Of a stretch of 64,000 bases of DNA, positions 3,393 to 27,168 are shown in pieces. Position 1 is the stretch's first letter, and each line of letters starts with the position of its first letter. The position numbers and the translations under genes were made by a program. The stretch is taken from positions 4,978 to 68,977 of the forward strand of contig JAFDHF010000015.1 of the NCBI GenBank assembly GCA_019308905.1, read 5' to 3'. A model generated the notes under the pieces. It worked only from the letters and a program-made list of their open reading frames with translations. It searched no databases and was not told the origin of the DNA. The DNA comes from Deltaproteobacteria bacterium. Lineage in GTDB: Bacteria > Desulfobacterota > BSN033 > WVXP01.

Positions 3393-6113
3393 CTACGAAC
3401 ACCCGCTGGTGGCACCACAGTTCAGGCACTTGTAACACGAGCCGTTCCGGACCATAATCGACCCGCATTCCGGGCAGGGGGGAGCGTCTTCCTGGGCAGC
3501 AAAGGCAAAACCCTTCTCCCTTTCCCTTTCTGCCTCCCCTTGCCGCCCCCCGGCCGGGGGATTGGCCAGGATCCCCACTTCCGCCTGCTCCTCCATGGTC
3601 AGGAATCTCGAGGCCAGCCAGCGGAAGATATAGTCGCTCAGGGATTTTGCAATGGGGATCTGAGGGTTCTTCGTGAATCCAGATGGTTCGAATCTCGTGT
3701 GGGCGAACTTGTTCACCAGTACCTTCAGGGGAACTCCGTACTGGAGGGCCAGGGAAACCGCTGTGGCGAAACAGTCCATCAGACCGGAAACCACGCTCCC
3801 TTCCTTGGCAATCACCACAAAGATCTCCCCTGGCGTCCCGTCGTCGTACATGCCCACCGTTATGTAGCCCTCGTGGTTCCCGATGCTGAACTTGTGGGTG
3901 AGTGCTCTCCTCTCGTCAGGAAGACGGCGGCGGTACGGAGCCCCCTTTCTCTCGAGGCTCTCCTTCTCTCTCTGGCTCAGGGGCTGGGTCCGTTTGGACC
4001 CGTCTCGATAGATGGCAACCGCTTTGAGGCCCAGCTCCCACGATCGAATATAGGCCTCCATGATCTCATCTACCGTGGTCTCATTCGGCACGTTTATGGT
4101 CTTGGATATGGCGCCTGAAATAAAAGGCTGGACAGCACCCATCATCTTTATATGGCCCATGTGGCTGATCGATCGACTCCCATTGAGGGGCTTGAAGGCG
4201 CAGTCGAAGATCGGCAGGTCCCTCTCCTTCAAATAGGGTGCCCCTTCGATAGTCTCCTTCCTGTCGAGGAATTCGAGGATCTCCTTCTTCTCGTCCTGAG
4301 AGTAACCCAGGCGATCGAGAGCGAGGGAGACGGTGCGGTTGACCATCTTGAGAACCCCTCCACCCACCAGCCTCTTGTATTTGACCAGAGAGATATCAGG
4401 CTCGACCCCCGTGGTGTCGCAGTCCATCATGAAGGCGATCGTTCCTGTCGGAGCCAGAACCGTGACCTGAGAATTTCGATACCCATGGGTCTCCCCCTCC
4501 TCTATCGCCTTCTCCCACACCTCGTGGACGGCCCCGAGAAACTCTAGGGGAACATAGGCGGAGTTTATCTTGGAAACCGCCCGGTGGTGTTTCCGAATCA
4601 CCTCGAGCATGGGCTTGCGATTCACCTCAAACCCTTCAAAGGGTCCGATTCTCCCCGCAATCTTGGCAGAGGTCAAATAGGCCTGCCCCGTCATAAGGGC
4701 GGTCACCGCCGCGGCATAGCTCCTTCCCGAGTCGCTGTCATAGGGAAGGCCCCGGGCCATCAGCAAGGCGCCCAGGTTGGCGTAGCCGAGTCCAAGAGGG
4801 CGGAAAACGCGGCTGTTTCTTGCGACCGCCTCGGTGGGGTAGCCGGCATTGTCCACGATGATCTCCTGGGCGAGGATCATGACCTCTACGGCGTGACAGA
4901 AGGCCTGCACGTCAAACTCCCCCGCCTCGTTCAGGAACTTCAGGAGGTTCAAGGAGGCCAGATTACAAGCCGAATCATCGAGAAACATATACTCGCTGCA
5001 GGGATTCGAGGCATTGATCCGCCCGCTGTTGGGGCAGGTGTGCCAGCCGTTTATCGTGGTATCGAACTGCATGCCGGGATCACCACACACATGGGTCCCC
5101 TCCGCGATAAGGCGGAGGACTTCCCTGGCCCGATAGGTCTCCATCACCTCCCCGGTGGTGACTGCACGGGTCTGCCAGGTGCCGTCCTCCACGACGGCCC
5201 TCATGAAATCGTCCGGAACCCTCACACTGTGGTTGGCGTTCTGAAAGAAGACGGAACCGTAAGCATCGCCGTTGAAGGAACCGTCGTACCCCGCGTCGAT
5301 AAGGGCCCATGCCTTCTTCTCTTCCTCCTTCTTTGCATTTATGAATTCTATGATATCGGGATGGTCTGCATTTAGGATCACCATCTTTGCAGCCCTTCGG
5401 GTCTTGCCTCCGGATTTGATAACGCCTGCAAAAGCATCATATCCCTTCATGAAGGAGACAGGACCCGAGGCCGTTCCACCTCCTGACAGATGTTCCCTTG
5501 AAGAGCGGAGGAAGGAGAGGTTTGTACCCGTGCCGGAACCGTGCTTGAACAGCATGCCTTCAACCTTGGCCAGTTCGAGGATGGAGGCCATCGAATCCTG
5601 GACCGAGTTGATAAAACACGCCGAGCACTGCGGTTTTTCTTCTATGCCGCAGTTGAACCAGACAGGGCTATTGAAGGAGGCCATCTGGTAAAGAAGGAGA
5701 TGAGAGAGTTCGTCCTGGAAGGCATCCCGGTCGTCACCGGATGTGAAGTATCCCTGTGATGCTCCCCAGCGTGTGATGGTCTCAACGACCCTCCCGATGA
5801 GTTGCCGGAGGCTGGATTCCCTTTCAGAAGTGCCCAGTATACCCCTGAAGTACTTGGAAGCCACCACGTTTACGGCCATCTGAGACCATGAAGAGGGAAA
5901 CTCCAGGTCTCTCTGCTCGAACACCTTTTCCCCCTTCTCGTTGGTGATGGCAGCGCTCCTCCGCTCCCACTCGAGGGTGTCAAAGGGAGAGACGCCCTTC
6001 TTCGTGAAATAGCGGCGGACGATTCCCCGCCTCCCCCTCTCCTCGGAAAGACCCGCATCCTGCTCGGGTTCCTCTCTTTGAGGATCTCGCTCCCCCATCT
6101 TCCCCTGACTCAT
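3393..6113 (-). CDS. nrdJ: Class II, adenosylcobalamin-dependent ribonucleoside-diphosphate/triphosphate reductase NrdJ
   Basis: 906-aa ORF with an RNR class II catalytic core (NSVQDSMASILE, active-site Cys-containing PCSEY, SGGGTASGP) and a C-terminal Zn-ribbon CPECG...CLNCG. Confidence 0.85.
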   Translation of the reverse strand: MSQGKMGERDPQREEPEQDAGLSEERGRRGIVRRYFTKKGVSPFDTLEWERRSAAITNEKGEKVFEQRDLEFPSSWSQMAVNVVASKYFRGILGTSERESSLRQLIGRVVETITRWGASQGYFTSGDDRDAFQDELSHLLLYQMASFNSPVWFNCGIEEKPQCSACFINSVQDSMASILELAKVEGMLFKHGSGTGTNLSFLRSSREHLSGGGTASGPVSFMKGYDAFAGVIKSGGKTRRAAKMVILNADHPDIIEFINAKKEEEKKAWALIDAGYDGSFNGDAYGSVFFQNANHSVRVPDDFMRAVVEDGTWQTRAVTTGEVMETYRAREVLRLIAEGTHVCGDPGMQFDTTINGWHTCPNSGRINASNPCSEYMFLDDSACNLASLNLLKFLNEAGEFDVQAFCHAVEVMILAQEIIVDNAGYPTEAVARNSRVFRPLGLGYANLGALLMARGLPYDSDSGRSYAAAVTALMTGQAYLTSAKIAGRIGPFEGFEVNRKPMLEVIRKHHRAVSKINSAYVPLEFLGAVHEVWEKAIEEGETHGYRNSQVTVLAPTGTIAFMMDCDTTGVEPDISLVKYKRLVGGGVLKMVNRTVSLALDRLGYSQDEKKEILEFLDRKETIEGAPYLKERDLPIFDCAFKPLNGSRSISHMGHIKMMGAVQPFISGAISKTINVPNETTVDEIMEAYIRSWELGLKAVAIYRDGSKRTQPLSQREKESLERKGAPYRRRLPDERRALTHKFSIGNHEGYITVGMYDDGTPGEIFVVIAKEGSVVSGLMDCFATAVSLALQYGVPLKVLVNKFAHTRFEPSGFTKNPQIPIAKSLSDYIFRWLASRFLTMEEQAEVGILANPPAGGRQGEAEREREKGFAFAAQEDAPPCPECGSIMVRNGSCYKCLNCGATSGCS

Positions 6114-6159
6114 TGGTCACCTCCTGATGGAATTCGACAAGGATCACCGGGAAACTCTC

Positions 6160-6197
6160 ATAGAATATAAGTAGCGCCATCCACCCCCCATGTCAAG
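6160..6197 (-). promoter_or_regulatory. Putative sigma70-type promoter for nrdJ-thyX (TTGACA then an AT-rich -10)
   Basis: Minus strand reads ttgacatggggggtggatggcgctacttatattct about 45-80 nt upstream of the nrdJ ATG. Confidence 0.3.
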
Positions 6198-6491
6198 CCA
6201 ATTTAACTAGATATTGTATTTTTTTCTGCGTCAGACACAAGATGTTGATTTTCCAGGCCCTTTGACCCTCGGCATGGCGCCTCCAAAATCGCGCGCTCAT
6301 CCAAGGGGGGCCGGCCAGGGCTGCGTCAACCTCGGAGGCGGCCTGTTGATTTTGCTCTGGGCGCCCCAGGGCAGATATCTCCTCCACTCGCACGTGACTC
6401 CAGTGTTATCCGACCTGGAGTTTCCTGACTTTTGGAGAACACCCTTGCCTCAGAGCGACATTGCGGAAGCGGTGGGGTACCCATCAAGGGT

Positions 6492-6601
6492 GAGCGGGGA
6501 GGGGAAAGGTCGTGTTCGTGATTCGTGAGTCGTGTTCGTGGGGAAGGGGCAGGAATTCCCCACCCGCGAACCTTGATAGGGTCACCGCGTGAGCTCAGGA
6601 G
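6492..6601. repeat. Intergenic repeat copy A, about 110 bp, containing a heptad tandem array (TCGTGNN)x4-5 at 6510-6540
   Basis: About 80% identical to the reverse complement of 26820-26934. Both share ggaaggggcaggaa, cgtgagctcagga and gtcgtgttcgtgattcgtgagtcgtg. Confidence 0.5.
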
Positions 6602-6703
6602 CGAGGGGACAAGGGTGTTCTCCTGCCAAAACAGAAAAAAAAACTCCAATTATCCGACCGATTGATCTGGTCAACACCTGTATAGTAAACTAAGGGTAGA
6701 GGT

Positions 6704-7481: not shown

Positions 7482-7504
7482 CTTATTGATCTGAAACAGA
7501 CAGC

Positions 7505-7727
7505 GCACTGTCTCCAGGTGTTTCGAGGAGAAACCGAAAAGGGAAGACGGTGAGAATCCGTCGCGGACCCGCCGCTGTGATCCCCTCTCTTCCGTGATGA
7601 TTCGGGAGAGGGTGTTCCCTTTGCAAAACGCTCACCAAGGTAGGGAGAGTCACTGTCTCCGCTGGGGATGGGAAGGCCGGCAAAGGGACCTGGGAGAGCC
7701 AGAAGACCTGCCTGGAGATACTTCACG
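7505..7727 (+). ncRNA. Cobalamin (AdoCbl) riboswitch
   Basis: Conserved core AAAAGGGAAGACGGTGAGAATCCGTCGCGGACCCGCCGCTGTGA, a downstream GTCACTG...GGGAAGGCCGG, and a B12 box GAGCCAGAAGACCTGCC at about 7694-7711. It sits in the 5' leader of the exbB-exbD-tonB-btuFCD genes. Confidence 0.65.
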
Positions 7728-7817
7728 AATGTCTTCGAGGGGCAAGACAGTGAAGGGTTAAGTAACTCCTTGAGCCGGTCACCCTGCGTGGACCGGCTTG
7801 TTTGTGCGGAGGTGGTG

Positions 7818-26558: not shown

Positions 26559-26630
26559 AGCCCCCGGACGGATTCGAACCGCCAACCTACTGATTACAAA
26601 TCAGTTGCTCTACCGTTGAGCTACGGAGGC
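26559..26630 (-). tRNA. tRNA-Thr (anticodon TGT)
   Basis: Hand-folded 72-nt cloverleaf: acceptor GCCTCCG/CGGGGGC, D-arm GCTC-AACGGTA-GAGC, anticodon arm ACTGA-TTTGTAA-TCAGT, T-arm GGCGG-TTCGAAT-CCGTC, discriminator T. No encoded CCA. A TTGTCT-17-TATAAG promoter lies upstream on the minus strand. Confidence 0.8.
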
Positions 26631-26819
26631 ACCGGCTCTCTCCCGGCAAGGCAAGACCCAATCAAGGGCCGACTCTTCATAATACTTATACAGGGTTTCG
26701 CACTACCAGACAAGGGGCCAAATACGCAGGGGTCCCCCCGCCTTTCGGGGCACATGTTCCAAGGTGTCTTGATTTCTGACGATATTTCTCGATTCTCAAG
26801 GGGAACCTCTTGTTTCCTA

Positions 26820-26934
26820 CCTCCTGAGCTCACGTGGTGGCCCCTCGGGTTTCGCGGGCCGGCAGTTCCTGCCCCTTCCTCGCGGACACGACTCACGAAT
26901 CACGAACACGACCTCTCCCCTTCCCGCTCGGCTC
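26820..26934. repeat. Intergenic repeat copy B, inverted relative to copy A, with a heptad array at 26887-26913
   Basis: The reverse complement aligns with 6492-6601 at roughly 80% identity. Located between the tRNA-Thr promoter and the cytochrome P460-like gene. Confidence 0.5.
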
Positions 26935-27168
26935 CCCCGTCCACGCCCGAGGCACCTCCGTGGCCCGCCACCCAAAGGGAGCAAATACACCCTTTCTACC
27001 ACACGAATACACTCTTCACCCCATTTACTCCTCCCTGCCGGAAAGCGATGCTAAACTAAGGCTCTTCGTAAGAGCCGAGGGACCCCTCGGGAGGAAGGGG
27101 AATATCGGAAAGATCGTCTCTGCCCGTATCGAGTACCAATGTCGATTCAAACCACAGGAGGTGGACCC

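Follow-up and report, generated by a model that had tools for sequence, protein, structure and literature searches.

What is the repeat that lies between the genes for a class II (B12-dependent) ribonucleotide reductase (nrdJ; 3393-6113, - strand) and LexA (6704/6710-7321, + strand), bears a run of TCGTG pentamers, and occurs a second time, inverted, between those for tRNA-Thr(tgt) (26559-26630, - strand) and a cytochrome P460 family protein (27139/27169-27645, + strand)? Both gene contexts, which had been predicted from the sequence of the 64-kb stretch of DNA analyzed here (the window), were confirmed. A repeat search across the window recovered the copy next to lexA (copy A) and the copy next to the tRNA gene (copy B) as two pairs of inverted arms, 6492-6570 with 26851-26929 (79 nt, 89% complementary) and 6579-6637 with 26785-26843 (59 nt, 71%), and blastn aligned them at 82.7% identity over 133 nt (E 5e-32). 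The core that they have in common thus occupies 6492-6637 (+) in copy A and 26785-26929 (-) in copy B and is ∼81–83% identical; the inverted orientation and the ∼80% identity of the original prediction stand, but on the extents of the repeat arms and the blastn alignment the shared length is ∼135–146 bp and not ∼110 bp. Two blocks within it, GGAAGGGGCAGGAA and CGTGAGCTCAGGAG, are the same in both copies. Neither pattern searches nor nhmmer gave a further copy in the window, as had been stated. Just 3′ of lexA the window also holds a cobalamin riboswitch (7499-7729, + strand, 89.8 bits), upstream of an ExbB/ExbD/TonB/periplasmic-binding/FecCD transporter cluster.

The array within the core had been described as four to five TCGTGNN units and is real, with a spacing that alternates between 6 and 7 nt. 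Copy A (6510-6540, +) has five pentamers, preceded by GG and separated by T, AT, AG, and T, giving start-to-start distances of 6, 7, 7, and 6 nt; copy B (26880-26911, -) has four pentamers, the same as the first four of copy A, and a degenerate fifth unit (TCCGCG). The window has exactly two occurrences of the three-unit pattern TCGTGNNTCGTGNNTCGTG, where 0.13 would be expected, and TCGTG/CACGA is the only pentamer that makes such arrays there. Scored as tandem repeats by TRF, the arrays of copies A and B are weak (37 and 36, with period 7 and 4.8 and 3.7 copies, respectively). Because the number of units in each copy is the same in independent assemblies of the species, with the same five in copy A of a second allele (L114), we have for now rejected a phase-variable repeat.

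The extent of copy A became clear from contigs of the same species, two of them from JGI (L114 and L115) and one from assembly GCA_019309355.1 (L124). In the undeleted allele (L114:7941-8218/9), copy A is a unit of 278–279 bp; each of its terminal inverted repeats adjoins one member of a perfect 10-bp direct repeat, TTATCCGACC. In the window the same unit measures 234 bp (6416-6649, +). Its left terminal inverted repeat, TGGAGTTTCCTGACTTTT (6416-6433, +), is complementary at 17 of 18 positions to the right one, AAAACTCAGGAAACTCCA (L114:8201-8218), while 60 shuffles of the region gave at best 12 to 15 matches in an inverted repeat of 18 nt. The left member of the direct repeat (6406-6415, +) directly abuts this terminal repeat, and the right member (6650-6659, +) ends 2 nt before TTGATC (6662-6667), which begins the conserved block upstream of lexA. 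A stretch of 45 bp, TCGTGAAGTCATATACTTGCAAGAATCCTCGGCCGAAAACTCAGG (L114:8161-8205), is present in L114 and L115 and missing from the window at 6640/6641; with it the window allele has lost most of the right terminal inverted repeat, and an A-run has come to lie beside the lexA upstream block. Because only AAACTCCA (6641-6648, +), immediately after this junction, is left of the right end, the window allele is a deletion derivative of copy A.

Folding agrees with a single unit. The 278 nt of copy A fold back on themselves as a single nested hairpin (-125.6 kcal/mol, z = -6.12; none of 200 shuffles was as good), and the opposite strand, folded as DNA, gave z = -6.38. The hairpin has the TCGTG array at its tip, and its left arm is a diverged copy of the right one in inverted orientation. 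At 234 bp, or 278–279 bp undeleted, and with no Pfam match at E≤0.1 for any ORF overlapping either copy, the element has the small, non-coding character of a MITE, and copy A has the target-site duplication as well.

The spacer between nrdJ and lexA in relatives shows what the locus looks like without the element. LexA of the window is 100% identical to that of a “Deltaproteobacteria bacterium” MAG, and the next relatives reach only 67%. Three lineages, whose LexA is 58–67% identical, keep the thyX-nrdJ/lexA order with spacers of 243–283 bp, compared with 596 bp in the window, and none has the element or a TCGTG array in that spacer. Taking out copy A, one copy of its duplication, and a further segment of 91 bp leaves 254 bp that are colinear with the relatives, including the conserved blocks upstream of nrdJ and of lexA. 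Copy A therefore entered the nrdJ-lexA spacer as one 278–279-bp unit, duplicating 10 bp (TTATCCGACC), and its insertion accounts for a spacer more than twice as long as that of the relatives. Within the species no empty-site allele was seen, all three assemblies that span the lexA locus (the window, L114, and L115) carrying copy A.

The 91-bp segment (6253-6343) is a second insertion candidate in its own right. It is G+C-rich, contains an internal hairpin, is single-copy in all sequence compared, and lies between two identical 10-bp direct repeats, TGTTGATTTT (6243-6252 and 6344-6353), the first of which falls in a block conserved with the relatives. On the nrdJ side, the blocks that relatives keep (∼6150-6255) are CATGTCAAG and the pair ACTAGATATTGTATTTTT and CACAAGATGTTGAT, the latter two of which we take to be NrdR-box-like. 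Before lexA, the block kept in relatives (6660-6690) reads TGA..GTCAACAC.TGTATAGTA and is a candidate promoter or LexA operator. We considered the possibility that the element belongs to the 5′ untranslated region of nrdJ and rejected it, as the conserved nrdJ blocks lie downstream of it in the nrdJ direction. The array should not be taken for an operator of either lexA or nrdJ.

Copy B is less complete. Its probable full extent is 26726-26974 (-), or 249 bp, and homology to copy A is confined to the core; compared with the full allele of copy A, identity is 35% in the left arm, 81% in the core, and 41% in the right tail. No terminal inverted repeats are recognizable, and copy B folds no better than shuffles (z = -0.59). 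It is flanked by 14-bp direct repeats, GTATTTGCTCCCTT on the left (26975-26988, -) and GTATTTGGCCCCTT on the right (26712-26725, -), which are imperfect (12 of 14) and, taken alone, at chance level. The right one overlaps the -35-like hexamer TTGTCT upstream of the tRNA-Thr gene (26713-26708) and aligns exactly with the position of the copy A duplication; judged from this alignment, the pair is probably a degraded target-site duplication. In L124, copy B is identical to that of the window save for a 1-bp indel outside the core.

A third core copy, 80–87% identical, sits at a different place, on a contig from a metagenome (L113), where its right end resembles that of copy A at an equal distance from the core and where the adjacent genes are convergent, with no promoter next to it. 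Beyond these, nhmmer over the window and all other collected loci gave no additional copy. A metagenome scan with two core blocks returned one extra contig and missed the element-bearing JGI contigs, so it carries little weight as to copy number. Two independent metagenome contigs (L113:1 and L115:1) start exactly after the TCGTG array; the assemblers thus broke there, in keeping with copies A and B being identical over a stretch of 29 nt, and the element may account for two independent assemblies breaking at this point. In a relative, a homologue of the 3′ module of the element (L121:2380-2474, - strand), 57–64% identical to the window and L113 copies and without a TCGTG array, lies between dnaJ and a response-regulator gene and is antisense to both.

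We conclude that the two repeats are probably diverged members of a small, non-coding, hairpin-forming insertion family of MITE-like character. In copy A, the 18-nt terminal repeats are the outermost part of an imperfect fold-back of ∼110 nt with the array as its unpaired tip, and the 45 bp of the right end were dropped from the window allele after insertion. Movement would have depended on a transposase acting in trans, which would bind the ends and cut the target with a stagger of ∼10 bp, repair leaving the duplication. Copy B may be an older or a subfamily copy that kept the core and lost recognizable terminal repeats, its degraded duplication being a probable trace. The heptad array is perhaps most simply seen as a short repeat of the slippage type that the hairpin loop tolerates, and the element would have no specific role in the host. 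A partner insertion sequence should carry the ends TGGAGTTTCCTGAC. We found no autonomous partner with copy A ends in the window, where the terminal repeat had no second match, or among plasmids, and on viral contigs the 18-mer end gave only isolated chance matches with no partner.

Bacterial MITEs such as Correia/NEMIS of Neisseria, ERIC/IRU of enterobacteria, and RUP of Streptococcus pneumoniae provide the closest comparison. Like them, copy A is non-coding and below 300 bp, has terminal inverted repeats and a target-site duplication, forms a long imperfect hairpin, and is intergenic, near promoters, and missing from the orthologous spacer of relatives; unlike them, it bears a pentamer array at its apex. 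A MITE-like repeat with a TCGTG array at its apex is an ordinary sort of bacterial intergenic repeat. The REP/MITE-like character that had been suggested for the pair is supported for copy A by its terminal repeats, 10-bp duplication, long hairpin, and absence from the relatives' spacer. Against a MITE, clear terminal repeats and a clear duplication, and with them the full signature, are seen in copy A only. In a typical MITE family the ends are the most conserved part; here the ends diverge between copies while the core is kept, an atypical pattern on the present alignments and the reverse of what such a family would show.

It is mainly because the core is better conserved than the ends that functional explanations stay alive. 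The conserved core could be a cis-acting protein-binding module, composed of the TCGTG array, GGAAGGGGCAGGAA, and TGAGCTCA, that lies upstream of promoters and modulates them, and by analogy with the way in which ribbon-helix-helix repressors read heptads the array might be read by a multimerizing DNA-binding protein; we consider this unlikely. The 7-bp period had been held to argue against protein binding, which is not a valid exclusion, because omega-type repressors read contiguous heptads: ribbon-helix-helix repressors, for example omega of inc18 plasmids, bind such units. The omega operators resemble the arrays in consisting of contiguous 7-bp units, direct and inverted, to which a small dimeric protein can bind co-operatively, and a 7-bp period is therefore compatible with protein binding. 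They differ in unit sequence and in that the window element is not at the promoter of a regulator's own operon; neither copy A nor copy B adjoins a candidate regulator or small repressor gene, ribbon-helix-helix genes included.

Apart from the contrast between core and flanks, the position of the core is what such a module would predict, since it ends 103 nt before the -35-like hexamer of lexA in full-length copy A and 107 nt before that of tRNA-Thr in copy B, with the same orientation in both. Against this, the relatives lack the element and yet express lexA from the conserved upstream block that they share with the window, the 45-bp loss in the window allele alters the spacing to the promoter, and the L113 copy precedes convergent genes rather than a promoter.

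The arrays of other genomes bear on the question from both sides. An exact scan for TCGTG-N-TCGTG-NN-TCGTG-NN-TCGTG, which covered one genome per species, gave 112 loci (L001-L112) in ∼75 genomes, the window's own not among them. These were mostly Desulfobacterota and other “delta” MAGs, Myxococcota, Binatia, Acidobacteriota, Planctomycetota, Gemmatimonadota, Chloroflexota, and Actinomycetota, and at least 62% of the loci were intergenic by a crude ORF call. The arrays are clustered within loci, and in the 826 kb of array loci there were 165 TCGTG arrays of at least four units, as compared with about a dozen for all other pentamers together. That ∼75 other genomes keep the TCGTG pentamers while the 1–2-nt spacers vary speaks for a protein-binding site, as does the lack of bias toward the coding strand of flanking co-directional genes (∼17:14), which fits recognition of DNA rather than RNA. 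On the other side, the arrays abut the 3′ ends of genes at least as often as the 5′ ends (74 vs. 58). The 50 genes neighboring the arrays matched 61 Pfam families, and none of the 25 that were listed was hit by more than one gene; with no common family among those listed for the genes downstream of the arrays, we rejected a regulon-type cis element.

Arrays of other pentamers stand before phage genes, which would also suit a protein-binding module. On viral contigs (L127-L131 and L134) we observed variable-spacer arrays of GTCTG (four to five units) and of TGCGT (four units, followed by AGCGTGAA units); the phage TGCGT arrays lie directly before a ribosome-binding site and start codon and resemble operator arrays. 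In the viral-contig controls TCGTG had one match, compared with four for GTCTG and five for TGCGT; TCGTG is no commoner there than the control pentamers and cannot therefore be claimed as special.

A broader form of the same idea is that TCGTG(N1-2) arrays are a recognition array for one conserved DNA- or RNA-binding factor across many phyla, and that the window element is a mobile carrier that places array and core ∼105 nt upstream of promoters. We hold this to be quite unlikely, although a mobile carrier would account for a core that is conserved between ends that are not. The arrays occur either as direct arrays or as hairpins of TCGTG array, loop, and CACGA array. The order TCGTG array, loop, CACGA array was found in 15–19 cases and the reverse order in two. 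Between paired arms, spacer length was equal in 19 of 47 pairs and spacer bases were complementary at 16 of the 36 compared; the arm spacers are not complementary, and it is therefore the pentamers that are kept and not the helix. An array at the tip of a palindrome, as in copy A, was rejected as a general rule, since among 119 direct arrays only copy A and one other locus showed it.

In some genomes the TCGTG arrays are embedded in repeats specific to that genome. An uncultured delta proteobacterium (MFD04944.bin.2.54; L096:380-6200) has four copies of a ∼270–330-bp repeat at distances of 1.3–2.5 kb, each with a TCGTG array of differing unit number, among genes for an IS256-family transposase, PIN-like and HepT-like (toxin-antitoxin-like) proteins, and an ArsR-type HTH protein; a 45-bp perfect palindrome also recurs there. 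In a Candidatus Acidiferrales MAG (L065:4960-6730), an ORF of 288 aa has TCGTG arrays on its left and CACGA arrays on its right, interleaved with a 65-bp G+C-rich hairpin unit (GCGGCCGATCGCGTAGGGTGGGTTGAGCGCAGCGAAACCCACC...) in a mosaic repeat architecture.

Our literature search found no paper on TCGTG or CACGA arrays, but comparable repeats have been described. Heptameric repeats are over-represented among bacterial simple-sequence repeats and are intergenic, include convergent pairs, and have no known function (PMC4692102, PMC4679880); examples are TAACTGA of Beggiatoaceae (PMC4679880) and GGGAATC of Xanthomonas and GGGGAYT of Nostoc (PMC4692102). The TCGTG arrays resemble such STRR-type repeats, including the cyanobacterial STRR, in a period of ∼7 nt, intergenic location, occurrence as direct arrays and convergent inverted pairs, neighboring genes with no common function, and a phyletically scattered distribution. 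In the window they differ in a period of alternately 6 and 7 nt, in which the pentamer is fixed and the spacers vary, and in that the arrays have four to five units, constant between assemblies, inside a longer repeat. The genome of Geobacter metallireducens has intergenic elements in many copies that contain four to five heptanucleotides in tandem, one family with GGACCGG ×4 in 49 copies and another with MTYCTGA ×5, mostly in opposite-strand pairs, for which the authors proposed regulator sites or RNA elements, the function being unproven (PMC2700814). As presented there, these too are dispersed non-coding repeats of a deltaproteobacterium with four to five units of 7 nt and some inverted pairs; their unit sequence is different, the families were defined genome-wide with tens of copies, and the passages on them describe neither terminal repeats nor target duplications (PMC2700814).

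We find it improbable that the core is a small RNA gene or element in at least two paralogous copies, with UCGUG repeats as seed or protein-titration motifs. One terminal-stem pair is G-C in copy A and G-T in copies B and L113, a single observation that counts for an RNA because only RNA of the TCGTG strand would tolerate the change. The 3′-module homologue in L121 stands alone in the dnaJ/response-regulator intergenic region, and in the predicted structure of the core UCGUGA is able to self-pair via G-U pairs. The structured small RNA that had been proposed was otherwise not supported. At gathering thresholds the only Rfam matches in the window were the cobalamin riboswitch and tRNA, both intergenic regions had none at E≤10, and eighteen array-bearing loci of other genomes likewise gave no match at gathering thresholds. 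The core alone folded on either strand no better than shuffles (z = -1.05 and -1.23), and neither strand had a promoter-like site upstream or an intrinsic terminator downstream. The folding and co-variation check that had been suggested came out weak: RNAalifold on four 3′-module homologues gave -7 kcal/mol with a positive, that is, unfavorable, covariation term. Finally, the lack of strand bias relative to genes among TCGTG arrays of other genomes, noted above, also weighs against an RNA.

We consider it very improbable that the element is a host-maintained, REP/BIME-like structural repeat that does not transpose, its loci linked by gene conversion or segmental copying and the repeats flanking copy A incidental. 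It is palindromic, extragenic, and G+C-rich, mosaics of TCGTG arrays and G+C-rich hairpin units do occur elsewhere (L065 and L096), and inverted TCGTG/CACGA arrays are often a few nucleotides from stop codons, including between convergent genes. However, it is very unlikely that a perfect 10-bp direct repeat would abut a 17-of-18 terminal inverted repeat incidentally. REP units are palindromic, 20–40 bp long, without target duplications, present in very many copies, and associated with a RAYT transposase; the present element, at 250–280 bp and with a 10-bp duplication, does not match them. The remaining suggestion, that the copies are relic ends of a mobilized 20-kb segment, was rejected, since nrdJ (outside the segment) and lexA (inside) are adjacent in all relatives examined, which puts its supposed end within conserved synteny, and the base composition of the interval is unremarkable.

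The MITE-like insertion that we favor is one more small mobile-element-like repeat in an uncultured deltaproteobacterial lineage, and its value is chiefly for annotation. The conservation of the core above the ends hints at selection on the core or at its concerted evolution. The pentamer array, in turn, turns up again in intergenic repeats that are specific to individual genomes of Desulfobacterota, Myxococcota, Binatia, Acidobacteriota, Planctomycetota, and other groups, and if this recurrence reflects a shared binding factor, the array would be a new cross-phylum cis element.
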